From Rhizaria sp. SCN 62-66 (lineage: Eukaryota), in assembly GCA_001724265.1 (NCBI GenBank), contig MEDY01000344.1, positions 1-35,602 of the forward strand: a stretch of 35,602 nucleotides of DNA. The letters run 5' to 3'. Below are positions 14 to 34,593 of this stretch, in pieces. A model generated the notes under the pieces. That model saw only the letters and a program-made list of their open reading frames with translations. It did no database searches and was not told the DNA's origin. Made by a program: the position numbers and the translations under genes. The number at the start of each line of letters is the position of its first letter. The first letter of the stretch is position 1.

Positions 14-3000
14 ATGATGCTCGGCGGCGGCGGCGGCGGCGGCGACGGCACTGCTGACCCTAGCGCCGCCGCGGCAGGCGGCGAGGGCAGCAACGCGCTC
101 GCTGACGGCGACGACAGCGACGACGACGACGACGCGGCTGCCGCGGCGGCGCGCGCGCGCTCTGTCGGCAGCGACGGCGCCGCGGCCGCGGTCGAGATCG
201 CGTTCTTGGACTACGACGACGACGGCGAGGACGGCAGCAGCGGCGGCGGCGGCGTGGGCGGTGACGGCGGCGGTTCTGCGGGCGGCGACGGTGTCCCCAC
301 AGCGCGTGCGCGTCACCACGCGGCTACCAAGCGCGCTCCGACGGCGCGGCGCTACTCGCCCGGTCTCTCGCGCTGGTCGTTCCTGCAGCTGCTGTGGGAC
401 AACGAGGGCGTGTTCATGCGCGCGCCGCCCGTGCTCTCGTCCGCGCACCGGCTCGCGTTGACCGAGCGCATCCTGTCCGGCACCAGTGAAGTGCACCTGC
501 TGCTGCCGCCGCTGCAGGCCGTCGACGTGGTCGAGGCGCGCCGTGCGCTTATTGAGGCTAACCGCCGCCTCGGTCTCTCGGCCTCACTGCTGCGCTCAGT
601 CAAGCACGCCGACGCCGCCGCGCGCGGGATCGACTTGCCCGCTGTCGTCGCGCTCAAGCAGGCTGTTGACGGCGGCCGCTACAACACGGCCGCCGCGGCC
701 GCCGCGCAGGACCCGACAGCCGCCGCCGCCGCCGCCGTCGCCGCGGCTGCCGCGCTGTCGCCCGCCGAAGCCGCCGCACGCGTGGCCTCCGAGCGGCGCC
801 GCGCCGCGCGCCAGTGCCGTTTGGACCGTCTCAAGGACGTCGACTCGCGTGACTTCTACTACCAGCCGCCGCAGATTGCCGTCGCGGGCGCTGGCGACGC
901 CGCTGCCGTCGCCGCCGCCGCCGCGGTGACACCGGCGATGCTTGCGCTGCTCGCGCGCGCCAATGACGCTGTGGTGTCCGCTGCGGCTGCGCTGGTGGTC
1001 GAAGCCGACGCCGTCGCCGCGCCGCCGCGCGCCAACGACGCCTCTGCGCTGCTCAACACGGTGCACAAGGCGGCGGCGCGCGAGCTGGGGTCAGAAGCGC
1101 GCGCCAACGAAGTGATCCGCTCCACGGCCGCGCTCGAGCTCTTTCGCACTCACCGCACGCCCGCAGTGGCCGCGGCCGCGGGCGCGCTCGTGGCGGCCGC
1201 GCAGGCCGGTCTGCCGCTGGCCGCCGAGCCCACGCAGCGGCTCCTGCACAAGCTCGCCCCGCGCACGCTCCGCGGCCCGCCGCGCCCGCGCGAGCGCACG
1301 CCGTCGGCGCTCGACAACGCGCTGGGCTCGCTCATGCAGTGGGGCGTGGAGCAGCCCGCTGGCCGCGCCGCGCTGCCGCTCGCCGCACTGGGCAACTGGG
1401 CGTCGCCGGTCAACGCGCTCGAGTGGGCCGGCGAGGGCTGGCTCGACGCGCTGCTTTGGCCGCACGCGCCTGAGGAAGTGCGGTTGGTGACCAACGCGTG
1501 GGGCAACGATTACGCGCGCCACTTCGACTGGTCCGAGGAGGGCGTGCGCCGCTTCCAGACGTACTGCCGCGCCGGCGATTATAACACCGGTCTCGTGGCG
1601 CGCGCGGCGAACCCACAGCAGGAGCGTTATCACGGATACATTCCGCGCCGCTTGCTTGACGCCCGGCCGCGCGCGCCGATGCTGTCGCTGCCGCTGCTGC
1701 TGCCCATTCCGCCGCCAGCCCCGCGCGCGGCTGACGGCAGCCTTTCTGCCGCTACGGCCACTGCGGCGGGACAAGGCAGTAGTTCCTACGGCTACGCGCC
1801 GACGGCCAACAACACGTTTGTGTCCGGCGTGAGCGACGTGGCCAAGCTTCTCCCGCCCATGCCGTGGTCGTCCTCGGCTATGGCGGCCACACCTGTCCCC
1901 GCGGCGGGCGCGAGCACCGCGTCGGCTGCGACGACGATTGGTGACGACACCGCTGCGCTGCTGAACCAGAACGGAGCCGTTGTGGCGGACTCTCTCGCGC
2001 CGTCGTCCTCCACTGTGAACAACCCTCCCGTATTGGCGGCGCAGCAGCTCAAGGAGCAGCGCCAGCGCCAGCTCAGCGAGGACGCGCGCCTCGCGACATC
2101 ACAATCCTCCGCCGAGTCCAAGATGATGCGCACGTGCTGCGGTTTCTTCGGCGTCGACCTCCTTGCGCCGCCATTTACTGTCAGCGGCATCAACTTTGCA
2201 TTCCTCGAAGCGCCCGCGCCGTTCCACGTTCCGCCGCACGTGCGCTACACACGCCAGTACGCGGGCGAGCAGGCCGCGCTGTACTTTACTTTCGTGACGT
2301 TCATCATCTACTATCTATTGCCGATTGCGCTGACTGGACTTGTGTTTACGTATTTCCACCTCCGTGACGGCTCCGGCAATCCTGCGACGCCGTGGAACGC
2401 GATCATCGTGCTCTTTTGGGCCACGTGGCTCATCGAGGCGTGGACGCGCAAGCAGAGCGAGCTCGCCATGCACTGGGGCCGCCGCAAGTACAAAAACCTG
2501 GAGCGCATCTCATACCGCTTCAAGCCGCTGTTGAACAAGGACGGTACCCCCAAGACGAAGCTGAATCAAGTCACGCAGGCGCACGATCCCTACTATCCGC
2601 TGCTGCGCCGTCGTCTCAAGGTGTCGTTCTCGGTGATCTTCACACTGGCCGCGATGGCCGTTGTAGTGGCAGTGCAGATTGCAGTGACGAAGCTCACACC
2701 CGACGGCAACTCGCCCGAAGACCAGTACAAGCAGATTGCGCTGTCGATCGCGTCTGCTGTGATTATCCAGGTCACTAAGGCCGTGTACCTTTTCTGCGCG
2801 GATAAGCTCACTGAGTGGGAAAACTACGCACTTGAGTCCCAGGCTGACACGTCGCTCAACCTCAAATCCTTCGCTTTCTGTTTCTTCAACGAGTTCTTCA
2901 CGCTGTACTGGATCGCACTCGGCCTCGACAACAATACCGACGCTTCCACCCGTCTTTTCATCCAACTCATCACACTCGTCCTCACTTCCATCGCGACGAA

Positions 3001-4765
3001 CATCCTGCTCCAGCAAGTCCTGCCCTGGGCGCGGCTGCGCTGGGCCACGCGGTCAAGCACCTGCTGCTTCTGCTGCCGCTGCAAGCGCGCATCGGTGCTG
3101 TCGAACCTCGCCTACTTCGTGCGCGAGCCCGAGCTCGCCGCGGCCGAGGAAGCCCGCGCGGTCGCGGAGATCCGTGCCGCGCGTCTATCTTCCAGTGTGT
3201 CGGTGCGGCTCGCGCTGTCCAACTCCGCCGGTGACTCCGGGCTCGTCACGGACCCGCTGCTGCCCCGCGGCCTTGCACTGCGCTCTTCTTCCTCATCTGC
3301 CGGCGGCGCCAAGCCCGCCAATTCGAGTAGAGTACAGCCACTGACTGCGGGAGGCGCCACACGCGGCACCGTGTCGGCGTCGGTGTCGACGCCCCCGTCG
3401 TCGCGCCCGTCGTCCGCGCGCGTGGCGCCCGCTGTTGTCGTTGGCAGCCCGCGCCGCGTGCGGTTTAACCTCGCTGCCGCGACCGCCGCGGCCGACTCTG
3501 CACTGGAGCGCGCCGAGTCCGCTGACGCGCTCGTCACCACTCAGCAACAACAGCAGCAGCGCAACGTCGCCAACAAGGCGGCGCGCCGCACCCGTGCTGA
3601 CGTCGCGTCCCAGGACCCTGCCGACGCCGCCGCCGCCTCCGCCGCATCGTCCGACCCGACGACTGTGTCCCTGTTCGAGCTGATCGACACCGCGCCGCTG
3701 GTGTCTGGCGCGATGACGTGGGCCGAGTACGCCCGCCGCGTCGCGCGCCGCCGCCGCGAGCTCCGCCGCCGCGAACGACTGCGCGGCGTCGCGGCGGCCT
3801 TCAGCGCCAGCGCCGTGGACGAGCTCGCGCTTGCCGTGCCGCCCGCCGAGTCCGCCGCCACGGCCTCCGCGGCCGCCGCGGCCGCCGCCGCCGCCACAGC
3901 CGCGGGCGCGCCGTCTGACGCCCACGCGCCATGGCGCTACGGCTACGGCCCCGGGTTCGAGGTGCCGCCCGCGGTGCTTGCGTCGAGCGATGAGGAAGAG
4001 GAAGCTGAGGACGACGACGACGGCGCGACCGCGGGCTCGCCGATGGCTGCCACTGTGGCGGCCGGTGGCGGCGGCGACTTCTTCAACTCCGGCGTGCTGG
4101 CGTACAGTCGCAATGGGTGCAACGGCGCGACCCAATTGCGCTCGCCCGTCGGCGTGTGCGTCTCGGTGAGCAAGTCTCGCCAGGAACGCCTCGTTGCGTC
4201 GGCGATGCTCGAAGCGCTGCGCCCGCCAGCGACGAAGCTGTTCAACGAGTACCTCACCATTATGATTCTGCTCGGGTATGTGATGGGATTCAGCTCTATC
4301 TTCCCAGAAGGTCCCGTTGCCGTTGTCATCGCGGTGTGGCTGGAGCGGCAGGGCGACTTGTGGCGCTTTCTGACCGTGACGCAACGCGCGCTGCCGATCT
4401 CGGCCAGCGACATCGGCGCGTGGCAGATCGTGCTGTCGTTCCTGTCGTACGCGTCGATCGTCTCCAACGGCATCATCATCTTTTACACCTCGGACCAGGG
4501 TCGCGCGATCATTGACTACGACCGCGATTTTATGTTCGTGTGCTTCCTGCTCATCGTGTGGACGCTCAAGTCGCTCGCCTCCCGCCTCGTGCCAGACGCG
4601 GCTACGTGGGTGCGCTGGCGCGAAGAGCGCGCTGAGCTGCGCCAGCAAGAGGATGAGCGCCGCTTCGGACACGTGTCCAAAGAGCAGGCGATGGCGACTG
4701 TCGCGCAGCTCAGGGATCAAGTCGCCGCGCTGCAGGGCAAGGTCCGCGAGCTTGGCGGGCAGTAA
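14..4765 (+). CDS. Anoctamin/TMEM16-family Ca2+-activated channel/scramblase with large low-complexity insertions; may be 5'-partial because the frame is open from position 2
   Basis: Family motifs 'RQYAGEQAALYFTF', 'WLIEAWTRKQSELAMHWG', 'LTEWENY...LNLKSFAFCFFNEFFTLYWIA', 'FNEYLTIMILLGYVMGFSSIFPEGP', 'TQRALPISASDIGAWQIVL'; multiple hydrophobic TM segments; ends TAA at 4763-4765. Confidence 0.9.
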   Translation: MMLGGGGGGGDGTADPSAAAAGGEGSNALADGDDSDDDDDAAAAAARARSVGSDGAAAAVEIAFLDYDDDGEDGSSGGGGVGGDGGGSAGGDGVPTARARHHAATKRAPTARRYSPGLSRWSFLQLLWDNEGVFMRAPPVLSSAHRLALTERILSGTSEVHLLLPPLQAVDVVEARRALIEANRRLGLSASLLRSVKHADAAARGIDLPAVVALKQAVDGGRYNTAAAAAAQDPTAAAAAAVAAAAALSPAEAAARVASERRRAARQCRLDRLKDVDSRDFYYQPPQIAVAGAGDAAAVAAAAAVTPAMLALLARANDAVVSAAAALVVEADAVAAPPRANDASALLNTVHKAAARELGSEARANEVIRSTAALELFRTHRTPAVAAAAGALVAAAQAGLPLAAEPTQRLLHKLAPRTLRGPPRPRERTPSALDNALGSLMQWGVEQPAGRAALPLAALGNWASPVNALEWAGEGWLDALLWPHAPEEVRLVTNAWGNDYARHFDWSEEGVRRFQTYCRAGDYNTGLVARAANPQQERYHGYIPRRLLDARPRAPMLSLPLLLPIPPPAPRAADGSLSAATATAAGQGSSSYGYAPTANNTFVSGVSDVAKLLPPMPWSSSAMAATPVPAAGASTASAATTIGDDTAALLNQNGAVVADSLAPSSSTVNNPPVLAAQQLKEQRQRQLSEDARLATSQSSAESKMMRTCCGFFGVDLLAPPFTVSGINFAFLEAPAPFHVPPHVRYTRQYAGEQAALYFTFVTFIIYYLLPIALTGLVFTYFHLRDGSGNPATPWNAIIVLFWATWLIEAWTRKQSELAMHWGRRKYKNLERISYRFKPLLNKDGTPKTKLNQVTQAHDPYYPLLRRRLKVSFSVIFTLAAMAVVVAVQIAVTKLTPDGNSPEDQYKQIALSIASAVIIQVTKAVYLFCADKLTEWENYALESQADTSLNLKSFAFCFFNEFFTLYWIALGLDNNTDASTRLFIQLITLVLTSIATNILLQQVLPWARLRWATRSSTCCFCCRCKRASVLSNLAYFVREPELAAAEEARAVAEIRAARLSSSVSVRLALSNSAGDSGLVTDPLLPRGLALRSSSSSAGGAKPANSSRVQPLTAGGATRGTVSASVSTPPSSRPSSARVAPAVVVGSPRRVRFNLAAATAAADSALERAESADALVTTQQQQQQRNVANKAARRTRADVASQDPADAAAASAASSDPTTVSLFELIDTAPLVSGAMTWAEYARRVARRRRELRRRERLRGVAAAFSASAVDELALAVPPAESAATASAAAAAAAAATAAGAPSDAHAPWRYGYGPGFEVPPAVLASSDEEEEAEDDDDGATAGSPMAATVAAGGGGDFFNSGVLAYSRNGCNGATQLRSPVGVCVSVSKSRQERLVASAMLEALRPPATKLFNEYLTIMILLGYVMGFSSIFPEGPVAVVIAVWLERQGDLWRFLTVTQRALPISASDIGAWQIVLSFLSYASIVSNGIIIFYTSDQGRAIIDYDRDFMFVCFLLIVWTLKSLASRLVPDAATWVRWREERAELRQQEDERRFGHVSKEQAMATVAQLRDQVAALQGKVRELGGQ

Positions 4766-5382
4766 GTGTCGCAGGTACAGGTATAGCCGTCAATTCTTGC
4801 CTGTTTGTGCTAGTGAATGTCACATATGTTCGACTCGCGTTGCAGCCTTCATATCTATATGTTCAACCCCTTACCCCAATTGTGTGTTTATTATAATGTG
4901 TTTTAGTTTTCATTTATTGATTGTTGGCTTAAATTTTGTTTTTCTGCTTTTTGTGCCGTGTGATCAGTGGAGTCGGAAATTTGTTACGCGTGCCTGGCCA
5001 TGTTTGAGTTATATTAATGATGATATTCTCCGACGATTGAGCAGGATATCCAGTGTTAATTGAATCTGTGTTAAGATGAATGACGTTAACATTGTGTTAG
5101 ATAGTTGTTCATCACTAGCTCATTTTAAAGTTCATACACAAAATGAATATTTTCTTGTCGGAGACGCGACTGCGGCAGCAGGTCGAGGCACAGAGCCACA
5201 GAGGATTTTGAATAGGAGCCAGAACTTCGACGTGCTTTAATTCTGTAGATTGATCGTCAAGTACTGCTAAAACTACATATCTTGATTAAATCAGTACAGG
5301 CTACTAGAAGACAATATTCTAATCCCCTATTCATTTGGATTCTCTTTTTTAAACGCCTGTTTCTTTCTTCTACCTAGACCGC

Positions 5383-7950
5383 ATGGCAACGACGAGGAAG
5401 CGGTTGAATCCGCGCGATTTTGAGTTCAAAAACAAGACTGGTGAGAAGTTATTCAAGCGCCCCGGCGAGATTAACGGTATCACGTTCACACTTGATGGCC
5501 TCACAGACTGTGACATCGTGCTCGCGGACCACTGCGGACAAGTGACGATGGACGACTCGACCCGCACCCGCGTTGTCGTGGGCCCCGTCGATGGTCCCTT
5601 TTTCCTCCGCAACTGTCACAACTGTCACGTCTCCGTCGCGTGCCGCCAGTTCCGCTGCGTTGACTGCTCCGACGTTACTGTGCGCCTCTACTGCCACACC
5701 AAGTCCCCCGTGGTGTAGACGTCAACGCGCATGACGTTTCTCCCCTGGAATGTCGCCTACCCCGCGCTCGACACGCACTTCGCCGCCGCGCGCCTCGACC
5801 CCGCCATGAACCACTGGGACGTGATCTACGACTTCAACGCCGCGGACCCTGCGCCTGCGGACGCGCCGCACTATACCGTCGCGACTTCATTCAACACGGA
5901 GTCCCGGGTGCTCACAGCCGATACTTTCGCTCGTGCGGACGCTGCCGACCCCGACGCTGATGCCGCGGCTGTCGCGGCGCTGCCGGCCCCCAGCAACCCG
6001 GTCGCGATGCCCGCGTCAGCCGCGTCCGCGGAGCCAGAGTGGGACGCGCCCCTCGGCCTGCAAGACGCCGCCGCCACTGCTGACGCAGAGGCCCAGGATC
6101 AGGAGCAGAAGGCTGCCGTCGTCGCTGCTGATGAGACTGCTGCCGCTGCCGATGCTGCTACAACGGAGCAGAAGGCCGCCATTGACGATGACGACGGTGA
6201 GCTTTTCGGTCTCGTCGAGGCCCCCGTTGGTTTCGCTGCCGCCGTCCCAATCGCTGACGACAACGCTGCCGCCGATACCAACAACACCGGCCTCGTCATC
6301 ACCACAAACGCTGAGCCTGCCGAGCCCGACCTGGCGGCGGCTAAGATGCACGTTCACGTCACCTCGCCCTCGCATAACGGCAGAGCTACGAACAGCACGG
6401 CCTTCAGCCCTAACGGCGCTGGAGCGGGGGATGAGTTCGACGTCTTCTCGCCCGCCGCCCATAGTACGGGGACGGGGACGGGCCGGAAGATGCTGCGTCC
6501 ATCCAAGGCGTAGACTGCCCGCTCCGCCGCGCCCACGCCCAGCAACGCCGCTGCGGCTGCGCCTGTGACTCCTCCCAGTACCGCCAGCGCGACCGCTGCC
6601 GCTGCTGCTGCGGCGGCGGCCACGGCGTCTGCTGAGGCTGAGGCGAAGGCTGCCCAGGACAAGAAGGACAAAGATGAGAAGGAGAAAAAGGACAAGGACG
6701 CCAAGGAAGCTGTTGAGCGCAAGAAGAAAGAGCAACTTGAGAAGGAAAGGCGCGATAAGGAAGCCAATGACGCCGAGGCCGCCGCCGCCGCTGCTGCCGC
6801 CGCCAGCGTTCCAGTGCAGAAGGCTGACGCCGAGGCCGAGGCTGAGGACGCGTGGGCCAACATCGAGGAGCGCGAGCTTGCCGCGACCGATGACGCCATC
6901 GACGTCCCTGCTGTCCCAGAGTCTGGATCCACTGCTACTGCTCCTGCAGGTGCTGCTGCTACTGCGGCAGGGACAAAGCCTGCCCCTGTCCCTGCGACCG
7001 CCCCCGTCTCCGCTTACGCCACCGTGACCGCCACGTCAACATCCGCCCTCCGCAGCGGCGGCCGCACCACATTTGCGTCTCTGCTCTCCTGGGGGCACGC
7101 ACTGGACATCTCCGCCCTGTTGGCCGGTGGCGCCCCACCCCGCGCCGGCGACGGCCCAGGGAGCGCCAGCAAAACCACCGCGCAGCGCGTGGTGTTTTGG
7201 GATGCGCGCACCAACATTTCCTGCTTCCAGTCGCTCATCTGGTCTCTCTGCGGCGCGCCCGCGCTGGACGATGGCGAAGAGGCCGCGCGCAAGAGGCTGT
7301 TGTGTCTCGCAGCGACGCGGTACGCTGCCGGCGACGGAGGCGACGATGCGGCGGTCACGCGTGGCGCTCTCGCGCGGTACTACCTCACACTCACGAGTAC
7401 CACCGGGACGCGTGCTCACAGCGACGACGACGCGGATCACGGCGCTGAGGCTGAGGCAGCGGTGGCAGCGGTGGGCGAGCACTGGGAGCGTGTCGGCTTC
7501 CAAGGCTCTGACCCCAACAGCGACATCCGCGGCACGGGCTGCCTGGGGCTGTTGCAGGTGCAATACCTGCTGCAGCGCGACCCCGCCCTTGCGGCGCGCG
7601 CTTACGCAGCGTCCCGCACCGCTGACCGCGCGTTCCCGCTCGCGATCGTGCTGTTTAACCTCGCGGGACTCGTGCTGCCAGTGCTGCGGTCGCCGGAGAT
7701 CGTCGAGTGGGTTGACCGTGTGCCCCCTGCCGCGCGCGCCGCCGCAGCCGCGGTTGCCGGGCCTGGTGCCCAGGTTAGCGCGGTCGAGACGCTCGCGCTC
7801 GAGGTGTTTGTCGGCGCGATCAGGCGCTTTGAGCGGCTGTGGCGGGCGCGAGGGGAGAGTATCGCTGCGTTTCCGCCGCTCAAGGACGAGCTGGCGGCCG
7901 CTGTGAGGGCGGACCCGCTCCAATTCATCGGCGAGCCCACCAAGGACTGA
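5383..7950 (+). CDS. RP2/TBCC-domain plus ELMO/CED-12-domain fusion protein (about 855 aa), read through two in-frame TAG codons (5716-5718, 6511-6513)
   Basis: ORFs 5383-5718, 5731-6513 and 6565-7950 share one frame and are separated only by TAG. The N-terminus is RP2/TBCC-like ('GPVDGPFFLRNC','CRQFRC','PVV*TS..MTFLPWNVAYPAL','NHWDVIYDFN'). The C-terminus has the ELMO GAP motif 'WERVGFQGSDPNSDIRGTGCLGL'. There is no in-frame ATG after 6513. Ends TGA. Confidence 0.8.
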
Positions 7951-8194
7951 GCGCGCGAATTGGCTGAGCGAGCATGGGATTGAACGTAACTTCTGGACTG
8001 ATGGGAGGTGCCTGGACGACTGAGGTCGAGTCAGGGCCACATGATGAGACTAGTGAACTTTTTATAAATCTGTTCATTCTGATCGTCAAATAGGATATGC
8101 CATCACAAGCTAATATAAAATACGATTTTTTATTTGATTCCTTAATTATATCTCTTAAAGGCTTTCTGAATACCGAAAATCGAGGTGGGCGCGA

Positions 8195-11100
8195 ATGGCA
8201 TCTTTGTACAGTCGCAAGACTGCCCGCCAACCAAGCTCCCCGCCTCCACCGACCACCGCAGCTCATGTTCCAACGCAACAAGCCCCGCCAGCAGCGCCAA
8301 CTGCTGACTTATGCATCTTCTGCTCTGAAGAGTGGCGCTCACTCGAGACGTACGGTGTGAAGGAGGAGGCCGCGTACCGAGCCTCCCTCGCAGCACCTGC
8401 CCATAGCACCATCGCCTCCACCGAGACGCAGGCAGCGCCCACCGCGGCCACCGCAGTCCCCGCCCTGACTGCAGCTGACGCGGTCCAGAGTCCCGTCTGC
8501 GAGTGCGCGCACTGCTTTTAGCGCCGGTGTGCAGTGGCCACCCCATGGGTTTTCTTCTTCACCCAGGCTCCCGCACTCGCGTTCGCGGACTCCTGGCGCG
8601 ACTGGCTGCTGGGCCGCGCTTTCACACTGCCGGACGGAAACACAGCGCCCGCGCTGGAGCGTGACGGTGGGCACGTTCCCAAACACAGCCCTCTTGCGCT
8701 GCTAGTGAGTGCTGATCCAGCATCAGTGTTGGAGCTCGCATCTGCCCCGAGCCCCGTCGCCTCGTCTTTGCCTGCAACAGCTTCATCAGCCAACACTGCA
8801 GCCTCGAGCGCAAAGACACCGGGTGCCGTCAATGCCGGCGTTTCCGAAGGTGTTGCCGCGCCGGAACCCGCTGCCTTTGGTGCCGCCGCTGTTGACGTCA
8901 AAGCACAGTACCTGTCGACCGCGACCGCAGCCTCAGTTGCGGATGCTGAACGCGCGCGCGCTGCAGCAGCAGCCACGAACCCAAACGCTCCTGCACACGC
9001 TGCGACAACAGCGCCAGCAGAGATTCTGACTGTGCGCCTGGCGTCCGCCGCGACTGCCGCCCCCGCCGCGCTCGGCTCGGCGGCGTGTGTCGTTTACACC
9101 GGCCCCGCTGCTGTGTCGCCGCTAGCCCACCGAGGCCGCGCGCACGACCTCTTCGCGGCCCGGCTGCGCGGCGCGCCCGTGCCGACCGCCGCCGCGCTTG
9201 CCGCGGACGCCGCGACCGACGCCGGGCGCGTGCGAGACGCTGCGGCGCGCTTCCCGCACAGTACTCACACGCACACTCACTCTCGCAAGTGCATTCACGT
9301 TGACGCTGGCACTGCCGAGAGTAAGCAGCGCCGGGCTGCCTGGGTGCTGCGCGCCACTGCTGCTCTCGTCCTGCCGCGAGTGTGGGCGTTTGAGCACGGC
9401 GCCGCGGGGAAGCGCGTTTACGTGGTGGCGTCACTGGGCGCGTTTGTGCGGCGGTTTGTGCATATGAAGCCGGAGCATGCGGCGTATTATGAGGTGGTCC
9501 GTGCGGGGGCGCCGGTGAGGCCGTATCTCGATATCGAGCTGACGTGCGATGATCAAAGTAACACATATATCACCAACAACGACCACGCCCAGCTAGCCAA
9601 CAACAGCGCTGACGGTGGCGACCAGTCAGGAAGCAGTGCTCCCGTCTACGGTAGTTCGGATAATAGCTCGAGCTCCGCTTCTGCCACTGCGGTTGACGCC
9701 CCTTTTGCGTTTCCGCCTCCCGTTGCAGTTGTGCGCGTGCTGTTGCAACGCGTATGGCTGCATCTGCTGCTTTTGCGCGGCGTCACGTTTGCGTTTCAAC
9801 CCGACTGTGACCGCAGCATCTCAGGCACCGATGAGAGTCAAGTTCACAAGAAGCGCCTGCTGTGCAAGACTCACGCGCCGTTTGCTACCCGTGCTGGCGC
9901 AGCTGTCAGCGACTTGGACGCGACGATCCGCGGACGCAAGCTCTCCCGACACGTGGTGTTGTCGCTGCCGGACGACGCGCGCATTGCAGCCGCGTCGCGC
10001 ACGCCGCTTTCTCCAATTGCGAGCCGCGAACAGCAGTCCAAGCAAACCGCGGATACTGCCACTACCGCTGGGACCAAGGGCGCCGCAGTTAACGGGGACT
10101 GGGAGCTCGTCGCGACCACGGCCACTGAGAGCGAAGATGCCGCAGTCAACCGTGACGGTAAACACGCCGCGACCCCTGACCTGTGGGGGGACTTGGGGGA
10201 CTGGATGCGCGCACTCCACAACGCAGTGCGCTTTGAGGCTGAACAAGCGCCACCGCACACAGCACCGTTAGCTGTTGATACAACTGCATGTAACAACTTC
10301 CGATGTGCCGCTCCTAAATCAGGACACGCGGGACGTTGTGGCGGGCTGTGTCTCGACTGGGCCCGACTCTGTGACCGCGCTTGCGACGGTGAGCGCGATA
10401 TGAGCGCTAATGAGCACAAACAGAGTCACTCTGGTGAATTCAGGGCTAGCGACCGCAAGTTCATGTTTAGTGACCGTGAGCGCGGAGGTGCATGGCCTCT
10501 GTGTGCGCTTGGGGGAATCTTGCGCTCACGTGCGCTTCCGTGCCCAGGTCTCGCACCAAGTCAATCGGGGCTTGCAACATGCTCTAGGTCAGCAGATGCA
10601 CAATCAGAGCATCCTTCGCAGTCACGTGTGCCGTGTGTTCGATGTGATAACGACCCGCTGATCTCTCTGCCTTCACTGCACACACCGCCTCGTTCGCAGT
10701 CGAATCGCGCTGACACGGACGCGTTTGATCACTCTTCTGAGTCGACGACTGTGACCCGCCTGTCGACTGCCGTCGCCGCGTTCGCGCGCTCGCTATGTCA
10801 CGCACACCGACACGGCCCCTTGATCTCAGCCACAGCGCTGCGATCTACCTTTGCACCCAACACTGCAGAGGCGAACAATACTCCATACTCAGTCAACTCA
10901 GACTCCCCATTGAACGGTACCACTACGAGTGAGTCGGTGAGCGCGCTCGGCGCGTGGGCGGTCGACACAGGTGTTTACACTCGGAATCGCTGTTTCCGGC
11001 TTCTTGGAGCTGCAAAGCGCGGCCGCGCGGCGCACCCACTCGATGTGGCTCCGGCGTGTGCTGAAGCGACCGCTGATGTCGACGTCGCAGCATCACAGGT

Positions 11101-12679
11101 GCAAGGCGCGTCTGACAACGAGGACTCTGAAAGCATTGCAACCGCTGGCGACTCAAAGCGTGTTCGTATTGCTCAGACCCCCCCAAAAATAGTGTCAGAA
11201 GTAAAGCCGCCTAGATGTGAGTGGTCGCGTGCGTACCCCGGGCTGATGGCTCTGACACCAGCACACGTGTCAGCCTCCGTTGCCGTCACTGGTTTTGACG
11301 TCGATGCGTTTTACGCGTCGCTCGTTTCAGTGGAACCACCGTTGCTGCCGACGCCGCCACCACGCGCAACCGCCAGGGATCGTCTTGCAGCTGCAGAAGC
11401 CAGTGCGACCGCTAGAAAGGCAGCGACGCAGTTGAATGGTGTGGTTACCTTGCCACCAGTGAACAAAACATCATCGACAGTGGCGGCCATGATAAACCCA
11501 ACGCTGCCGCCGCTTCCTCGGCTGCAACTGCTGTGCTCCTTAGCATCTTGCAGCAACGAGCAAGCTTTTTCGACAGGTGCGGCTGCGTTGGCTGCTATTC
11601 CGGTGCGACCGCCCCCGAGTTCATTGGCGTATGTGTTCTGTGGCGATAGTCACACGTATACAGAAAGCGGTGACGGTGCCTCCTTTTTAGTGGATGCTGG
11701 AGCAGCATTGGCGTTGCCGACACTGCTGTTAGGCGATGTCACGAATACCGGTCACTATAGTACTGACGGTTTCTGGTCTCATGCTAGCGCACAGAGCCAT
11801 GACAACCAGAATGATGCCACTCTGGCAACAGACAGCAATTCAAGTTTGAGTGAAACTGGGACGCGCACGACTACGACTACAACAGTATTTTCCAGCACAG
11901 ACGTCGCATCCCCGCGTGTGTGGCCGCTGTATCGCGCAGCATTAGTTGCCGCCGACACTGCACTGTGCCGCGCTCTGCCTGTCGTTGCGAGCCTTGTAGT
12001 CGCACAACAACAGCAACAGCAGCACGCTCGCAGTCCTCTGTCAAACTCGGCTTTTAGCGACACGCACAGTCCATTTGCCGCTGGGGCGCGTTTTTTCCCT
12101 GGCACGTCCCCTGTGCCCGCCGCCGAGGCGATGCTTTTGCGGCACCTGCGCTGGGAGCGCGCGCACCTCACGGGTACGCACACGGGTACTCGCAGCACTC
12201 CCACGAGTTCCGGGTCCGTGACGTTGTCGCAATGGGGCGCCGGCCGTCTCTGCGCCGCCCCCACCACCAACACACCCGCGGCCAGAAAGGCGTCGCCAGC
12301 CTCCGCAGCGCCAGCGCTCAGCGGCGCAACCGCCGCGACCGCGACTGTCGGGTGGGCAGATACTGCGGCGGCAGCGACTGTGGTGGTGCGCAGTGTAGAG
12401 GTGGAGTTTGTCGCGCGCGGCGCTGTGTGCTGGCATAAACGCGCACCACACCGGGCCAACGCCACTGTGCACGCACTGCGGATTGACTTTGCGCCTTTAT
12501 CGCACAGGAGCGGCAACAGTAGTGACAACAGCGGTGCAAGTGCGGTTGCAGCAGTGACCATGGGCTCAGTGACTTCGGTGACGACAGTGCAGCGGTGCTT
12601 TGATCCGGAGTGCAGGGGATTTACGGGGCCAGAAGTGCGACTAGACAACTTTGATTACGACAAGCCCTTGCTTTTGTGA
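8195..12679 (+). CDS. PRIMPOL: PrimPol DNA primase-polymerase (about 1494 aa, heavily expanded), read through in-frame TAG at 8519-8521
   Basis: AEP motifs 'YYEVV..PVRPYLDIEL' (DxE), 'KLSRHVV' (SxH), 'VDTGVYTRNRCFRL', and a C-terminal UL52-type Zn finger 'CWHKRAPHRAN...QRCFDPEC'. ORF 8195-8521 (ATG start) is in frame with 8534-12679 (GTG start). Ends TGA. Confidence 0.88.
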
Positions 12680-13610: not shown

Positions 13611-15059
13611 ATGCGTCTTTTGGCGTCCGCGCTTGTCGTCGCGCTGGCTGCAGTGCTAACTGGCGCGTTGCTCCTTTTATCGACGCCGCGTGCGTCGATT
13701 CCCGCCCACCTCCTGCATCACCCTCTGATCTACACTGAGAACTTCATCCCGCCCGCCGTGGGCGCCGAACTACTCGAGCTCATTAAGACCATGCGCGTGT
13801 TCCCGACTAACGCCGCGGACACCCAGTTCTACCGCACCCTCCGCGAGGACATTGGCGAGGCCGTCCCGCTCACTCCCACAGCCCCTAACTCTACCGGCGC
13901 CGTGGCTGCCTCGGGCGCTAGCGGCCGCTGCGAGCACCCGTTCCTGATCCCCAACAAGAACCGCACCGCGTGCGTCCTTCCGGGTCGCGTCGACGTCGCA
14001 CGCCACTTCATCACCACTGGCGGCCCCGACGGCGTCAAGGAGAGTTACTCACGTCTGCTTTCGCGCGTGCAGTCGTTCGGCCGCTACATGTTCGATCTGG
14101 ACCAGTACCCCGTCGTGCAAGCGCTCTTTGCCTCCGAGTCGTTCAAGCGCTCGGCGCAGGGCGTGTGCCCGGTCGGCAAGCGGTACTTGGACCCGTTCCA
14201 GTTCAACTTTATCATGCAAGTTCCCGGTCAAACGGTCGCGATGCACATTGACGCGCCGTACTTTTGGGGTGCGACGCGCTTCGAGTTTCCGCAGTGGCTG
14301 CTGGCCGTTATGGTCTTCTCGGGGCTGTTCCAGGACCGGTTTGTGGACCAGGTGCAGATCGTCGGATATTTGCACCAGTGGCAGCCGTCGCCGGAGCGTC
14401 AGGGAGAGTTCGTCTACTGGGACACCGAGGCTGACGTGCCGCTCAAAGAAAGCCCCGTCCCGCTGGCCGGGTCCGCGGTTGACGGCAGCAAGCTCGTCCA
14501 CGCAGCGGCCGTGTACCGCCCAGCCGACGCGCCCCCGCGCATGGACAAGAGCAAGGGCGCTGAGCTCCGCTACCGCGGCTCCAGCAAGGGCGGTGACAAC
14601 AAGAGAGTGGGGAGCGACGATGTATGGGATTTGATGGAGGGCGAGCGGCGTCTGGCGTCGTACTCGACGGACGACCTGCGTATCACGATCGTGTACCGTG
14701 CGCGCTGCTTCAAGGATGCCGCCGAGGCCGAGCGTTTCAGGAAGCTGCCACAGGAGGATGCGATGTCGCTCGAGTTTGTGCTTAGTAAGCTGCTCGACGA
14801 GCTTATCCGCCGCGGCGCAGTCACTGAGGCGGACAAGCAATACTACCTGACGGGCTCGCGCGGCAGTAAGCCTGCCGCGGCGGCGAGTGCGTTGAGTGAG
14901 GCCCGGCTTGAGCTCGCGGTGAAGTTGCTGGAAGAGTACGTCAAGTACCCGCTGGCAACGGCCGACAAAGCCTTGATTCCGTACAACTACTGCGCGCTGG
15001 GCCAGCTGTATCCCGCGCTGAGCCCCGTCATCGCGCTGCTTTGTCCTGCATCGGACTAA
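13611..15059 (+). CDS. Uncharacterised protein with N-terminal signal peptide/anchor and a 2OG-Fe(II) dioxygenase-like motif pattern
   Basis: Hydrophobic N-terminus 'MRLLASALVVALAAVLTGALLLL' (ATG 13611; the ORF is open from 13536 through AT-richer sequence); 'PGQTVAMHID' (HxD), distal 'LVHA' His and 'LRITIVYR' Arg; ends TAA. Confidence 0.6.
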   Translation: MRLLASALVVALAAVLTGALLLLSTPRASIPAHLLHHPLIYTENFIPPAVGAELLELIKTMRVFPTNAADTQFYRTLREDIGEAVPLTPTAPNSTGAVAASGASGRCEHPFLIPNKNRTACVLPGRVDVARHFITTGGPDGVKESYSRLLSRVQSFGRYMFDLDQYPVVQALFASESFKRSAQGVCPVGKRYLDPFQFNFIMQVPGQTVAMHIDAPYFWGATRFEFPQWLLAVMVFSGLFQDRFVDQVQIVGYLHQWQPSPERQGEFVYWDTEADVPLKESPVPLAGSAVDGSKLVHAAAVYRPADAPPRMDKSKGAELRYRGSSKGGDNKRVGSDDVWDLMEGERRLASYSTDDLRITIVYRARCFKDAAEAERFRKLPQEDAMSLEFVLSKLLDELIRRGAVTEADKQYYLTGSRGSKPAAAASALSEARLELAVKLLEEYVKYPLATADKALIPYNYCALGQLYPALSPVIALLCPASD

Positions 15060-15639: not shown

Positions 15640-18600
15640 ATGTCCTTCTCCTCCCGTCGTGGGTTGCCGCGCCAGAGCGACCCTTCGCTGAGCATCGACG
15701 CCCGCAGCGCCAACACCAGTGCAGACAGCGTTGCGCGCTACTTGGAGGAGATTAACCGACGCAACAACCGCGGAGCTTCACCTTCTCGCGGCTCCTCGCC
15801 GGCAGTCTCCGCCGCCTCTGGCACCGCGACCCCCACGCCGTTCAACCACAACAACAGCGCGGCTGGCGCTGGTGCTGCTGCTCCCGCGGCTGCCGGTGGC
15901 GACGCGGGGACGACGCGGTCCGTTACAGCGTCCGGCAGCGACGCGTTCTACGCCGGGGCCCCGCTCGCCGACACGTCTTTCTACTACGCCAGCGGCCACC
16001 CGCAGCGCCCCAGCGTCAGCGCCAGCGTCAGCGCCAGCGTCAGTAGCGCGAGCACGAGCACGGGAGCGGCGTCGGTGACGTTCGGCGCCGGCCAGGTGGC
16101 GAACTACACGCCGCGCCACTCGCGCGCGGGATACGGCGGCGGGGCAAGCGCCGGTGCCAGTCCACACCGCGGCTCTGCTTTGAGCCTCCACGGTCACGGT
16201 GCCGCCAGTCATCCCCCTAGTCGCTCCCCCGGTCCGGGCCACGGCCAGCTTGGCCACTACGGCGCCGGCGGTGCGACGACTCTGGACCTCCACGGCCAAA
16301 GCACGGCGCCGCCGACCGTGCCAGGCTCCCCTGGTCACTTGAATCTCGCCGCACTCGCACAGGCACCCTCCTCTTCGCGGCCGTCGTCAACCGCGTCGTC
16401 ACTGGCCGACGGCTCATCCTCCACAAACGCTGTGACCGCTGCAACAGCAGCCAGCCGCTCTTCTGGGGCGACTGGAGTAGCGGCGGCGGCGACGGCGGCG
16501 GTGTTGTTGACGGCAAGGGATGCGTGTGCGCAGGCGCAGGCGCTAGCGTTGACCGATAGCGACTACGGCGCTGCTGAGGCCGCCGCGGTCGCCAGCGCTG
16601 CGAGACCACGGTCCACCCGCGCGCTCATTATAGCTGCTGACTCCAACGCCAGCATTCCCGCAGATGGCAACAGCGAATCGAGTGGATCGGCTGCTGGAGC
16701 TGTCGAGAAACACACTGATGTGAACAAGCATCAGTCGCCGCAGTGGCAACAGCAGCAGCAGCTTTCGCAGCTGCGGTATGTGTCCTCCGCGCCTTCTCTC
16801 GGCGCACTTACCGCCGCTACCGCCACCACAAACAGTTCCAGCAGACGCAGCGGCGCGGCGGGTATTGCGCCCGGTGCAGTCGCGGCCGGCCACCGCATTG
16901 ACCTACTCAACCTCGACTCTCCCACCTCGGCCTCTGCGAGTACGTCTGTGAGCAGTAGAGGGCCGGCGCCGACTGTGGTGACCGTGAGCGCAGGCTGGCT
17001 GCGGGGCGCGCGCGACTGGCTTCCCGGCGCGCCTCACGTTGCGCTCCCCTCGCTTGAGTCAATCATCGCGCTACTCCAGCCCGTGGATGACGATGCGGCC
17101 GACTGCGATGCAGACGCCGCCAATCCCGCCACGCACTCTGGCAATAACAACGGCAACGGCGGCGGCGGTGGCGGTGCTAACGCTCTGGTTGCGCTGCCGC
17201 CACTGTCGCCGCTGCTCTGCGTGCCGGGCGGTCCCGTCGCGCGCGGCGACCGCCGTAGCCACGGCTTCCAGCGGCCGCTGCACCCGCGCCAGCTGCTCGT
17301 GTGGGCGCAGATCGCGCTGCTTCTGGTCACGTTTGCCTGGCTGTTCCTCGCGACCGTGCGCGCTGACACACCGCGCATCGTCCTGGGCGTCATCGCAGCA
17401 CCTTTCGTGCTCGCCGGCGTCGTCGCGTTCGTTGTCGTCTCCGTGGCCGACCCCGCGATCGCCGAGCTCGCGCTGGTTCCGGTCCGCGCCGCTGACATCG
17501 CCCGGCTGGACCGCGCGCTCAACGCGTCGGGCGGCTGGGTCCCGCGCCGCGTGCCGGAACTCGTGCACCGTGCGTACCTCGCCCTCCGCGCAGCCGCGAA
17601 ACCCCTCGCGGACAGCGACGGCAGCGACGCCAATGGCGATACCAACACGCACAACAACAGTAACCACAGTAGTGAGGACGTGGTGGCGCGCCGACTGCAG
17701 GATGGGCTCGACGTTACCGGCGCGCCGCTTGTCGGCCGCGGAGGCGTCGTCCTATCCCAGCCAGTCTTCGCCACCGCTGCGCAAACGCAGACCCACGCAG
17801 TCGCCGGCGCTGTGGCGGTCAGCGCGGGCAACACCTCGAGCAGCAGCAGCAACAGCAGCAGCGCTGGCAGCGGTCGCGACTGTGGCCAGTGTAGCGCCGC
17901 GGGCGGCGACTGCGCCCACACCCACACCCGCGCCCACGCGCAGACGCAGGCGCCTGTCAGCATCGGCTGCGAGCTGCAAGGCAACGACGCGGAAGACCCG
18001 GACGCGGTCTCGCTCGGCACCGGTCCACGCCGCGCTCCTCAAAGCGCCGCCGCAGCCGCGCACGCCGCTGCCGCTCGCAGCGATGGCAGCGACGGGATGA
18101 CGATCGCGACGTCGTTCGTGCCCGGTCCAGGCTGCCCGCGCGCTACGGCCCGCGCCCCCGCGTTTTGGTGGCCGCCGGCGCTGCTCGCGGAGGCCGAGCT
18201 GGCCTCTGGCGTTGAGCGTCGCGCGCGCTTCTCGTCTCTGCTGCCTTCGTCGCCACACGGCACAACACTCGGCGCAGCGCATAATGCGGTGCAGCGTGGG
18301 CCTTCAGTCGCCGGTCACGCCGCGGTGAGCTGGCCGCCCGTTCCCGACGCTGCGCGCGCCGCCCCGCGGGCCCGCGTCGCATCGCCACGCGATACTCTCA
18401 ACGCCGCACTGCGCGGGGACGTTACCAACTGTTTTGCGAACGACAAGGTGTCGGGGCTCGGTGTGGTCGTGCTCACGATCACCGCTGACGAGCGTGAGCT
18501 GCCGCCACCCGCTGACACCATAAACGCAAGTAGCCCGAATGTAAATGCTGCTGTGGGCTCCACAGGGCTCGCGGCCGCTCCGAGCGCGAATGCGAGTGTG

Positions 18601-20497
18601 AGCGTGGAGTGGCTACCGGCGCGCGGTATCGTTTGCCAGCGGTGTCGCGTCGAAGCGCCAGCCTCAGACCCGCGCCGCAAGCACTGCTTCGTCTGCAACA
18701 AGGTACGATTCTCTTCTCTATTATCTTCTAAACTAACAGTACTTCTCTCTCATGCGTTGTAAACACATCCGTCCACAGCTTCAATTTGCCCATCAGTCGC
18801 CCCGTGTTCTTTAACTTCAATCTCATGTCTCTATTCTTTTGTTTTCGCTTTGCACAGTGTGTGTCTGGGTTTGACCACCACTGCCACTTCCTCAACACCT
18901 GCATCGGCTCCCGCAACTACCGCTCTTTCTTCACCCTCATCTCCTGCCTCCTTACCGTCGAACTCACCGTGCTCGCCGCGCTCATCTACACGTCAGTGCT
19001 CTCCTTCTCTGAGCCCGCGAAGCTGACCCTCACGCCGCTCGCAGGCTCGCTCACTGCGCTGCGAGTGCTCGTGCTCGCGGGCGCGGCCAACGCGGCGGGC
19101 GGGATCGCCGCGGTCGGAGCGCTGTGGTGTTTCCACGTCCTGATTGCGCTGCAGGGCAAGACGACATACGAATGGCTTATCGCCCGGCAACAGAGGCTGG
19201 TACGTGTACAGTTTAATCAAACGCGTTTATGTCAATTTAACTCACACACGTCATATATATTTGTATCTTATTTTCGGTCAATCTTCTTCTAACCCGTAGA
19301 ATGTCTTCTTCTTTTTTTCCTTTTTCTTTGTTCTAACAAATTTAGCGCGAGGTGGAGATGTCCGTTTCAACGTCAACCTCGTCGGTGCAAATGGCGTCCC
19401 GCGCGCGCGCCCGCTCGGCCCCAGACCGCGCCGCCGCCACCCCTAACAATGACTCACAGTACCAACAGAACCAGCAACTCGCTCTGCGGTCACAGCGCGC
19501 TGGCAGCGCCGTCAGCGGCGGCGGCGCGGCCACACCGCCGCCGGCCTCTGCGCGCGGTCTGTTTGCGCGCCACCACCACAGCACCAGCGTCAGCCACAGC
19601 AACAGCAACGGCTACGGCGCGGGCTCCACCCCCAGCCACGCCGGGTTCAGTGGCACGGGCAGCGTTGGCAGTGTGGCTGGCGCGGACGCAGGCAGTAGCG
19701 GCGGGCCGTATCGACCTCCAGCGCGCTCGTTCGGGTCCACGACTCCGACACCGCGGTTCTCCCAACAGCAGCAGCAAGCGCTGCAGCAGCAGCAGGACTT
19801 GGAGCAGCAGCAGCTAGAGCGGCAGTACGGCACGGCGAGCGACCCCTTCGCTGACCCTATCACATCTAGTCGCAGCGACGGCCCTCATAGCGGCGTCGGC
19901 GGTGGTGTCCCGATGCGCGCTGTGGCGCGGCCGCTGTTTGCAGGCTCGTCCGGCCGTTTCAGCTCTGCTGATCGCGGCGGCAGCGACCGTGAGGAACCAC
20001 TCGATGTCATCCGCGAACAGCACGAACACGAGATTCAGCAGCACCAGCAGGAACATCAACATCGGCAACAACAGCAGAGTAGTGACACCGAGATCTCCGA
20101 CAGCGTTCATAGCGGCAGGGGTACCAGTGCCAGCAGCAGCGGGGGAGCCAAGCCCGCGCTCGTGCGCATTACGATCATCCCGCCCACACCGCAACAGCCG
20201 CAGAGCCGCTTGCTGCAAGAGCAGTCACCGCAGCTACAGTCTCAACAGTCCGCTCAGGCGCAGTCTCAGTCTCAGACGCAGTGGGGTCAGACGCAGAGTG
20301 TGCAGTCAACGTTCCATGCGGTGCACGCCGCCGGCAGCCCCGTCAACGAGGCCGGCGAGAGCCAGGAAAGCTCCGTCGACACGGGAGACGCGGACGGTGC
20401 GTCTGTGACCAGCGCTGCGGCTGCTTTTGTGGACGCGGGCGACATTGACGTTGCTGATGTTGTTGTTGAGGTCGACGCCACTGAGGCCTTGGCGTAA
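15640..20497 (+). CDS. DHHC palmitoyltransferase (ZDHHC1/11-like); exons 15640-18702, 18858-19199, 19346-20497 (about 1518 aa)
   Basis: Splicing rebuilds 'CQRC...KHCFVCNK|CVSGFDHHCHFLNTCIGSRNYRSFF' and 'KTTYEW'; N-terminal 'RRSHGFQRPLHPRQ' plus 2 TMs. Both introns are phase 0 and restore the frame. Ends TAA. Confidence 0.9.
18703..18857 (+). other. Spliceosomal intron 1 of the DHHC gene (155 nt)
   Basis: GTACGA...TTTGCACAG, AT-rich; removal joins CNK to CVSGFDHHC. Confidence 0.9.
19200..19345 (+). other. Spliceosomal intron 2 of the DHHC gene (146 nt)
   Basis: GTACGT...long pyrimidine tract, CTAAC branch-like motif, TTTAG; joins in frame to ORF 19352. Confidence 0.85.
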
Positions 20498-21384
20498 GCC
20501 TGACGATGCGGCGTTTGACGTCGCATTGTCCCTGCGTTATAAGCATTGATATAGCATTGTCTTTGCTCACCGTATCATATTGTATCTTTATTCTCATCAT
20601 ATTCTGTGCAAGTAATATTGTTGCTTGTATCCTTCTTCCCTTTGTTTTGTCACTGTCTACTACCTTCCCACCACATATTTAGCTATTCATATCGTGTTTT
20701 TTCGTCTGACTGCGATACGCAACACTTCCGTGCGTCCTTTTTGTGTAAGTGTCTATCCAGAGTCTTATCGTGAGCGTGTACTGTTTATAATCGATTGCTC
20801 ATATTATGTTTTCACCACAAACGCTGTCTGCACTGCAGTCGCATGTGCGTGAGTGTAGCACGCTCGTAGCCTTTAGAGGCGTTGACCTCCTGTCTTGTCA
20901 CCATTCGATCGCTTTCTCTACAAGTGCACACGATGACACGACCGCATGCGAAACACGCTTCATTGCTTTGCGCGGAGTTGCCAGTGTGTTAATGCGCTTG
21001 TTTTAGCGCTCATGTAGAGGCATCCAGAAACAGTGTCACTTTTTGACGCACCTTCTTCGAAACTACCGATATCTAGTGCTTTTTCCGTTCATTATTACCG
21101 TGAGTTTGTCACTCTCCGTTGTCATTCTCCGTAATTCATTTAGTGAATATGTACGAATATCATGTCCACTGTAGACAGATATTGGCTACAGAATCCTACC
21201 ACATCCATCTGAGGTTATATAAAATACACTCAATTGTTGATGAGCGGAGCACATGAAGGAAAATTGGCAATAGGTCTGTATTGTGTGATACGACATGGAA
21301 GATAAACATGTGTAAGAATAGATATTAGATATAGGTAGCAAGTCTAACAGAATCATGACTGAGTAGTGAACGAAACGCGCAGTT

Positions 21385-25494: not shown

Positions 25495-26388
25495 ATGCCC
25501 AGCTTCAAGTCCAAACCGCGCGCACTGTAGGCGCCACGCTCACCGCGCACGCCCCCACGCGACAAGCGTCGCGCCGATGTGCCCTCTGTCACGCTGCACG
25601 ATGCCACTCTTGCTATCGACCAAGTCTTGCCCTCACCAGAAGCCGACTCAGAGGTTGCAGTCGAGGTCATTGCTCCGAGGTCTCGCACTGGCGCAGCTCC
25701 GAAACAACAGCTAATCATGCAACAGAACCGCGCAAACACGCGTAGCTCTAGCAATAGCAAGCTCGTGGCACAGAGCAGCAGAAACGTGGACGCCAGCGAC
25801 AACGACGGAGACAGCGACGACGACCGCGAGAACACGAACGACAGCAGCACGAACGGCACGAGTCGCGGAGACAGAAACGGGCGCAGTCGCACCTTGGTGA
25901 CAAAGCGTGTCGCCCAGCAGCAGCTGCCCTCGGTCACATGCCGCTTGCAAGCCCGCGCCCTAAAGTCCTCTGCATCAGCGCCCGCAGCGGCGGCGGTGAG
26001 TTCAGTCACCACGGCGAAAACGAAGACATCTGTGTCCACGGTCACGCAATGTGCACCCGCATCAGAAACGCAGTGGACGAGCGCGACAGTAGTCACGGTA
26101 ACCTCTGGTGCAAAGACTGAAACCCAGAAGGTCGTGGTGGCAACGGGCCCGCCCGCGCCTGCGAGTGTCGCACGCTACGAGCAGGCTCGCACACTGGTCA
26201 CAGCGACCACAAACGCGATTGGGCAGCACAACAACAACAACAACAACAACGGCTTCACGGCAGAAGGATTCACCGCCTTCCATCTGTCAGGGCGCCCACT
26301 CACGACGCTGCCGCTCCGGCTCCTCTGTGCGCCGTTTATGATGGCGACGGGTAGCGGCGACCAGAACAGTCCGCGGCCAAAGTTGTGA
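25495..26388 (+). CDS. Hypothetical low-complexity protein (about 297 aa); probable ATG at 25495 with in-frame TAG at 25528-25530
   Basis: CATC-ATG CCC AGC TTC AAG...CTG TAG GCG... is in frame with the GTG-started ORF 25579-26388; the GC-rich segment begins near this ATG; ends TGA. Divergent from the 25131 gene. Confidence 0.5.
26228..26250 (+). repeat. (AAC)n microsatellite encoding poly-Asn
   Basis: caacaacaacaacaacaacaac run within the CDS (HNNNNNNNG). Confidence 0.8.
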
Positions 26389-31902: not shown

Positions 31903-32164
31903 GTGTGGTGTGATTACGTTTAATGTTACCTAGAACTTTGAAAAATATGTCAATTTTAAAACAAATTAAGTAAATAAAAAATCGAACTTAATCATATTTT
32001 TGTGTGTGTGAAGTTACGGATTTATTCTAAATAGTATTAGTGGCATGAAGCTGATGGGGCAGCAAACTTCACAACTGCGACGGGCACTACGTCAGTCACA
32101 TGGGGCCACTGATAAAATATCGCAAAACGTGCCACAAACAGCGTATAGTAGTATGGGGGGGAGC

Positions 32165-34520: not shown

Positions 34521-34524
34521 TGCT

Positions 34525-34541: not shown

Positions 34542-34574
34542 CATATATGCTATGAGAAAAAAGATGATATAGAA

Positions 34575-34591: not shown

Positions 34592-34593
34592 GT

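Follow-up and report, generated by a model that had tools for sequence, protein, structure and literature searches.

In-frame UAG codons facing glutamate in a GC-rich protist contig: a possible nuclear code that retains UAA and UGA as stops

The DNA considered here is contig MEDY01000344.1 of Rhizaria sp. SCN 62-66 (assembly GCA_001724265.1), all 35,602 nucleotides (nt) of which are referred to as the window, and in particular its gene G2, which encodes a TBCC/RP2-like domain fused to an ELMO domain and contains two in-frame TAG codons. Both codons stand opposite glutamate (Glu) in related proteins. It appears probable that UAG is a rare Glu sense codon in this organism and that UAA and UGA still act as terminators.

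Two TAG codons opposite glutamate in G2

G2 comprises an N-terminal TBCC/RP2-like domain, a long linker rich in Ala, Glu and Lys, and a C-terminal ELMO domain. Its open reading frame (ORF; 5353..7950, with the ATG at 5383) stays open solely under TAG read-through, and 743 open codons then follow the first TAG (5716-5718). The match to the TBCC profile PF07986 (1.5e-31; 109.1 bits, cut-off 24.8; profile positions 4-120 of 120) is a single uninterrupted stretch spanning this TAG, and the ELMO_CED12 profile PF04727 is matched beyond both TAGs (1.8e-18; 67.7 bits, cut-off 23.3; profile positions 39-173 of 176). Because no ATG occurs among the 478 codons remaining after the second TAG (6511-6513), the ELMO part of G2 can only be obtained by continuing the upstream frame. 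Beyond both TAGs, the frame, the codon score and the ELMO domain are intact, with scores typical of the other genes and a G+C content (GC) at third codon positions (GC3) of 0.76, and GC drops to 0.27 past the TGA of G2.

The stretch 5686-5770 (+) translates as LYCHTKSPVV, then the TAG, then TSTRMTFLPWNVAYPAL, as quoted in the original prediction, which placed this TAG on the conserved Glu of the domain (E138 of human RP2) and held the upstream QFR arginine finger to be intact. Both claims are borne out by a phmmer search against PDB sequences, in which G2 residues 5-153 align with human RP2 (2bx6_A, E 1.6e-26), the TAG lies opposite E138 (...QPIIESS...) and R91 lies opposite R118. Human TBCC (2yuh_A, 9m1m_C) also has Glu in this column. 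In a HMMER search of 1.84 billion representative proteins, 2191 homologues were found at E <=0.001, and the column counts use the best 150 of these 2191; of 152 homologues realigned to the window protein, 151 gave a match, with the best domain of each being counted. Glu occupies the TAG column in 145 of the 151 matched homologues, the rest being S (2), V, A and T and one homologue without coverage, and none of the 151 has Gln, Leu, Lys, Tyr or Trp. Across the full set of 179 domain alignments, which takes in degenerate repeats from proteins with several domains, 151 show Glu. Locally, SPVV-TAG-TSTRMTF of the window is aligned with SPVIESSSAMTF in P0004 and DPIIETSSKMLF in P0007, two environmental proteins. 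The E138G variant of human RP2 is disease-associated (PMC3124502).

Among full-length relatives, P0004 (972 aa) and P0007 (1052 aa) come closest to the window protein; both have the TBCC+ELMO architecture and share 52% and 51% identity with it, respectively, over the TBCC part. The original prediction regarded only one site as informative, and this no longer holds: the second TAG also faces Glu in both orthologues, albeit in the same gene, so that UAG encoding Glu is supported by the alignments but not proven. Here, the window reads KMLRPSKA-TAG, compared with KVLKPSKA-E in P0007 and KLLRPSKK-E in P0004, i.e., the TBCC+ELMO fusion carries a linker motif K-x-L-[RK]-P-S-K-[AK]-E. Among 154 proteins scanned, the pattern [LIVM][RK]PSK is restricted to the window protein, P0004, P0007 and the cluster mate of the latter, P0151. 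A local BLASTP alignment of the linker with P0007 (E 0.001; DEFDV..PAAH..RKxLxPSKA) likewise sets this TAG opposite Glu. When the three orthologues were aligned globally with MAFFT, the linker motif fell out of register, the linker being poorly conserved. Overall, both informative sites face Glu (2/2).

When every single-base path to a stop was enumerated in G1-G4, the chance that two of two stops would be Glu>TAG under random nonsense mutation was 0.006-0.02 (for transition/transversion ratios from 4 down to 1). Such a reassignment could have arisen by a single base change of the tRNA-Glu anticodon from CUC to CUA, and a transfer RNA (tRNA) with this anticodon would decode UAG and not UAA; the introduction of PMC11687900 sets out why CUA anticodons skip UAA. 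This tRNA would presumably work alongside an eRF1 with weak recognition of UAG. Sense TAGs would stem from GAG, the main Glu codon (124 GAG vs. 28 GAA in 4706 training codons), by one G>T change. The search for tRNA genes (ARAGORN) and RNA families (Rfam) yielded none in the window.

Like members of the RP2/TBCC family (Arl2/Arl3 GTPase-activating; PDB 2bx6, 3bh6, 2yuh), the G2 product has a full TBCC domain, the QFR finger and the Glu138 position. Unlike them, it is fused to ELMO through a low-complexity linker of ~500 residues, and, unlike RP2, it lacks a C-terminal NDK-like domain (no such Pfam match). This fusion through a long low-complexity linker is kept in three environmental eukaryotes, those of the window, P0004 and P0007, which also share the ELMO signature GFQG..P..D.RGTG. 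Both the TBCC/RP2-type and the ELMO domain are of GTPase-activating types for Arl/Arf GTPases. Named TBCC homologues are scattered over eukaryotic supergroups (green algae, Rhizaria, Rhodelphis and Thecamonas), and the anoctamin part of the window matched nothing more specific than 'Eukaryota' clusters in the Atlas. Word-index protein searches returned only the window's own fragments, or those together with P0004, and a search of genome contigs with the TBCC+ELMO alignment gave no match.

Stop codons, other genes and independent assemblies

To score coding potential, codon log-odds were trained on five unambiguous ORFs (4706 codons, no stops), and for each stop trinucleotide on both strands, a score >8 and at least 40 codons lacking the two remaining stops were required on each side. 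Stop trinucleotides within coding-like sequence numbered 5/431 for TAG, 0/429 for TAA and 0/1003 for TGA. Of the five TAGs, those at 3939 and 3945 on the minus strand run antisense to the anoctamin gene and were rejected as false positives, which leaves the sense-strand TAGs at 5716, 6511 and 8519. The nine host genes end in TAA (five) or TGA (four) and never in TAG, and an AT-rich spacer lies directly 3' of each terminator (GC straight after the terminators, 0.22-0.47). In this genome, GC is high in coding sequence and low in the AT-rich spacers (0.22-0.50).

Beyond G2, gene G3 contains a TAG near its start and gene G8 possibly another (Table 1), so that 3-4 in-frame TAG sites are spread over 3/9 host genes. 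Under TAG read-through, the G3 ORF begins at 8159, its GC-rich block starts at ~8161, and 8195 is the first ATG past the AT-rich spacer; no ATG occurs in the 314 codons that follow the TAG, though this stretch scores as coding. In G8, an ATG lies 11 codons upstream of the TAG and the next one 62 codons downstream, and GC is already 0.58-0.60 from 25441. The rise in GC matches the start codon in G2, G4, G7 and G9. In G3 and G8, GC-rich sequence sets in at the ATG that lies 5' of the TAG, which supports both TAGs as in-frame. The G3 TAG is uninformative as to the inserted amino acid, since no G3 orthologue was found in word-index protein searches, and G8 likewise has no orthologue from which the residue could be read. 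Near its C-terminus, G3 matches the Herpes UL52 primase zinc finger below threshold (E 0.092; 13.1 bits, cut-off 21). Its stretch ...YYEVV...PYLDIE... may resemble the catalytic motif of PrimPol-type primases.

The TAGs recur outside this assembly. Window positions 2028-5737 (3710 bases), the first TAG included, are found with 100% identity in metagenome contig L001, and the stretch 5300-8700 was detected in 12 runs of 8 studies, four of which contain at least half of the sampled words. Logan contigs of four runs were aligned to the window, and those of run X3 (wastewater, another study) cover 4800-5737, 5854-7206 and 7330-9550 with zero differences. Run X4, from a third study with activated-sludge libraries and ten years later, represents a second strain with 7 single-nucleotide polymorphisms (SNPs) in ~6 kb; it has the same letters at 5716-5718, 6511-6513 and 8519-8521, and one synonymous change lies 6 bases past the first TAG. 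Four of the SNPs are at third and three at second codon positions (7706, 8448 and 8484). Thus, because they are identical in independent assemblies and, at 5716, 6511 and 8519, in a second strain, the in-frame TAGs are not sequencing errors. Contigs from run X8 (a polyA metatranscriptome) lie on 5442-5710, 5781-6029 and 7211-7425, none bridging a TAG, and cannot prove transcription; run X6 is probably DNA. Contig joints with sides of 21-25 letters in Ala-rich repeats were treated as spurious.

The metagenome scan yielded only L001, which duplicates 3.7 kb of the window, and a distant relative, L002, the end of a 185-kb contig that encodes P0007 (orthologue at L002 2068-5286; GC 51%). No in-frame TAG occurs in the L002 orthologue, and TAG terminates 2/5 complete ORFs on L002. 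As this distant relative ends ORFs with TAG, the reassignment, if any, would be specific to the window lineage. Positions 1-530 of L002 contain long T-rich runs (poly-Phe in translation) with a low GC3 (0.39).

Table 1. Features of the window, with position, strand and remarks
Feature	Position	Strand	Remarks
G2	5383..7950	+	855 codons + TGA terminator (7948-7950); intronless model suffices; two in-frame TAGs
TBCC / C-CAP cofactor-C-like domain	5485..5835	+	residues 35-151; Pfam PF07986
QFR arginine finger, R91	5647-5655	+	opposite R118 of human RP2
First TAG (TAG 1)	5716..5718	+	codon 112 of G2; at RP2 Glu138 position
Linker motif KMLRPSKA	6487..6510	+	directly 5' of TAG 2
Second TAG (TAG 2)	6511..6513	+	codon 377 of G2; opposite Glu in both TBCC+ELMO orthologues
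ELMO/CED-12 domain	7447..7875	+	residues 689-831; Pfam PF04727; 3' of both TAGs
G3	8195..12679	+	~1494 codons, TGA terminator; no confident family; one in-frame TAG near start
TAG 3	8519..8521	+	in-frame, codon 109 of G3; coding-like scores 10.9 / 11.0 either side
TAG 4	25528..25530	+	possible in-frame TAG; codon 12 of G8 if start is ATG 25495; low-complexity protein, uninformative
Introns of DHHC palmitoyltransferase gene	18703-18857, 19200-19345		Pfam 2.3e-17; first joins ...HCFVCNK to CVSGFDHHC...
Intron joining two long ORFs in phase	30509-30636
TAA terminator, G1	4763-4765
TAA terminator, G4	15057..15059	+
TAA terminator, G5	20495-20497
TAA terminator, G7	21385-21387	minus
TAA terminator, G10	31900-31902
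TGA terminators	7948, 12677, 26386, 27568

Several features of the remaining sequence may be mentioned. The DHHC palmitoyltransferase gene (15640-20497) consists of three exons that initially resembled separate ORFs; the second ORF, 19293..20408, which contains a TAG, is an off-frame artefact, the true frame being that of exon 3. The upstream TAGs 13500, 30568, 30634 and 34683 are ORF boundaries only or intron ends and were discarded as sense candidates. The TAAs of the anoctamin gene and of the gene ending at 31902 each lie within a copy of the octamer GTAAGTGT (4762-4769 and 31899-31906), which is found once more in a spacer (20745-20752). Its presence at two TAAs could reflect chance, a 3'-end signal or the donor of an unrecognised last intron; if the octamer is a donor, those two TAAs are no terminators. 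At the right end, 32772-35601 (minus) is a block of lower GC (~0.48 vs. ~0.65 in the host) with two ORFs, both ending in TAA, one of which matches profile PF22031 (4.3e-10), the C-terminal domain of the V20 major capsid protein of virophages, and the other a parvovirus-type phospholipase A2-like domain (PF08398, 4.1e-9). The block has the appearance of a virophage or polinton-like element that has integrated and runs off the window; relatives of the capsid-like protein were searched for in viral contigs, with no match.

Weighing the alternatives

The main rival explanation is that the code is standard: G2 would be a pseudogene that lost its function recently, or would carry nonsense alleles that became fixed (two GAG>TAG changes), and the other TAGs would lie in 5' leaders or an unrecognised intron. 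The G>T lesion raised in the original prediction, now a double one, is thus still to be reckoned with, and a number of observations favour it and weigh against a sense UAG. Only two sites tell the amino acid, both in one gene, from 35.6 kb. Two of the 3-4 in-frame TAGs fall within 855 of ~10,400 host codons, a clustering also compatible with a defect of this gene alone; no TAG interrupts the genes of 1587, 1259 and ~1500 codons, and UAG makes up a very low share of Glu codons (~1%). GAG>TAG needs one substitution, and single-base changes to a stop in these GC-rich genes most often yield TAG (0.58 of the paths in G1-G4; three TAGs of three, P = 0.19). The absence of TAG terminators among nine genes is suggestive but weak evidence alone (~0.03-0.1 if TAG ended 20-30% of genes), and because in-frame TAA is expected to be rare in a GC-rich genome (GC3 ~0.8), its absence is no proof that UAA is never sense. 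At the second site, BLASTP of the linker against P0004 alone is weak (KLLRPS, E 0.54). As for the other genes, the status of the TAGs in G3 and G8 would depend on the start codons chosen; the G8 TAG failed the coding-on-both-sides filter, and the G3 TAG has two non-synonymous SNPs of the X4 strain (8448 and 8484) in a stretch of 40 bases just upstream and may be included in a weak intron candidate, 8350..8709, whose GTACGG donor at 8350 has one frame-compatible acceptor (8710) with a pyrimidine-rich tract.

Nonetheless, inactivation of G2 appears unlikely. Across its 855 codons, the gene shows neither a frameshift nor a TAA or TGA, and both domains retain all their invariant residues, although this absence of decay marks is also compatible with very recent inactivation. 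The probability calculated above for both stops striking Glu codons is low, and G3 and G8 would be left without an ATG for 314 and 62 codons, respectively, in GC-rich, coding-like sequence. Moreover, TAG terminates none of the nine host genes, and both G2 TAGs are kept in two strains. Clustering itself is compatible with both a lesion and a sense UAG, as reassigned codons are non-randomly spread in Blastocrithidia (PMC12153298).

A second explanation is that UAG is translated otherwise, as Gln, Leu, Tyr, Lys or Trp, or is decoded ambiguously depending on context and still ends some genes, with UAA perhaps having a dual role as in Blastocrithidia. The known UAG-only reassignments, as covered in PMC5304391 and PMC11687900, are to Leu and Gln, and the case here comprises two informative sites and nine terminators, with in-frame TAA being rare in any event. 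However, the first site is a near-invariant Glu from which the five amino acids named are absent, and whose E138G replacement is the disease-associated change of RP2 cited above; the second site is Glu in 2/2 orthologues. Gln, which the original prediction had kept as an alternative, is thus disfavoured, and decoding as another amino acid, or in an ambiguous manner, is improbable. Pyrrolysine and selenocysteine were dismissed, given a Glu column and a eukaryotic organism. A dual UAA is opposed by the fact that the TAA and TGA codons of all 9 genes abut AT-rich spacer.

It is very unlikely that the TAGs are spliced out, edited in the RNA or bypassed by a gene-specific programmed read-through signal. 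The organism does have introns: three were verified, all with GTACG donors, 128-155 nt long, AT-rich and located in bins with a GC of 0.33-0.40. Their donors share an unusual extended GTACGA or GTACGT, and two of them end in TAG; a GTACGT at 28019 suggests an extra upstream exon for the gene 28094-31902. A donor-like GTACGG occurs 47 nt 5' of the second G2 TAG (at 6464) and 169 nt 5' of the G3 TAG. However, for the former, there is no frame-compatible acceptor in the size range of verified introns, and the peptide encoded from 6464 to the TAG is a conserved motif kept in P0007. The protein alignment over the first TAG is free of gaps, and GC at the TAGs is 0.61-0.73, compared with the values for intron-bearing bins. 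With GC-rich surroundings and conserved translation, neither of the G2 TAGs is spliced out. The candidate intron at the G3 TAG is 360 nt long and GC-rich, unlike the verified introns, and is unlikely. Read-through signals are not expected within catalytic domains, and the contexts differ among the TAGs (TAG-ACG, TAG-ACT, TAG-CGC and TAG-GCG).

Finally, an error in sequencing or assembly, or a heterozygous allele present in a minority, also raised initially, can hardly be maintained. Contigs do drop rare variants, but no other support was found. L001 carries the first TAG, and the X3 and X4 contigs (different studies and years) carry those at 5716, 6511 and 8519, with no other letter listed there. 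In the public protein collection, G2 appears as two pieces, 111 and 260 residues long, and these truncated products are based on 7 and 6 contigs.

Relation to known nuclear codes

Within the literature searched, supplements aside, no report was found of a code with UAG as Glu and both UAA and UGA as stops, and the statement of the original prediction that no such nuclear code was known agrees with the accounts in PMC5304391, PMC10553269, PMC12153298 and PMC11687900. It is slightly more likely than not that an undescribed nuclear code of this type is present in an uncultured, GC-rich, intron-poor protist lineage that lacks a close sequenced relative and recurs in wastewater and bioreactor metagenomes, and that it represents an early-stage reassignment (~1% of Glu codons) in a GC-rich genome. 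Nuclear stop reassignments are rare and different meanings of UAG and UAA rarer still, the cases in the sources cited being Leu and Gln with UAA as stop, and Glu only with UAA as Lys. If the Glu assignment is true, the retention of UAA and UGA would add a combination, outside ciliates, and such a change could begin in a strongly GC-rich genome; a comparative Blastocrithidia study ties reassignment to AT-richness (PMC12153298). The very low usage of UAG, at functionally critical Glu positions, would then be a snapshot of an early stage. As standard gene callers split genes at TAG, the proteome of this organism would be mis-annotated in wastewater metagenomes.

The UAG-only reassignments that retain UAA and UGA as stops are those of the rhizarian exLh (Leu), Iotanema spirale (Gln) and phyllopharyngean ciliates (Leu or Gln) (PMC5304391, PMC11687900). 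As proposed for the window, UAG alone is sense in these codes, UAA is a (preferred) terminator, and a tRNA with a CUA anticodon is expected. The window differs from them in the apparent assignment to Glu instead of Leu or Gln, in being GC-rich (56-74%) and in its non-ciliate origin, and its UAG usage is far below the 'widespread usage' reported for phyllopharyngean ciliates. In Oligohymenophorea sp. PL0344, UAG is Glu, UAA is Lys and UGA is the sole stop (PMC10553269); UAG thus encodes Glu with a meaning distinct from that of UAA, as proposed for the window, but UAA is sense there, whereas in the window TAA ends 5/9 host genes and never lies inside coding-like sequence.

UAG is also Glu in peritrich ciliates, in which UAA and UAG both encode Glu (PMC11687900), and in Blastocrithidia, in which UAR is Glu, UGA is Trp and UAA is also a stop (PMC12153298); the non-random codon spread of the latter may be paralleled by the clustering in G2. 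Neither code fits the window. The peritrich code (NCBI table 30, UGA the only stop) was rejected on the TAA terminators and the 0/429 TAAs in coding-like sequence, and the Blastocrithidia code (NCBI table 31) on the 0/1003 TGAs in such sequence and the four genes of nine that end in TGA. Both of these codes also read UAA as Glu, and that of Blastocrithidia reads UGA as Trp, whereas the window has no in-frame TAA or TGA; its GC-rich sequence is also unlike the AT-rich genomes of Blastocrithidia and peritrichs.

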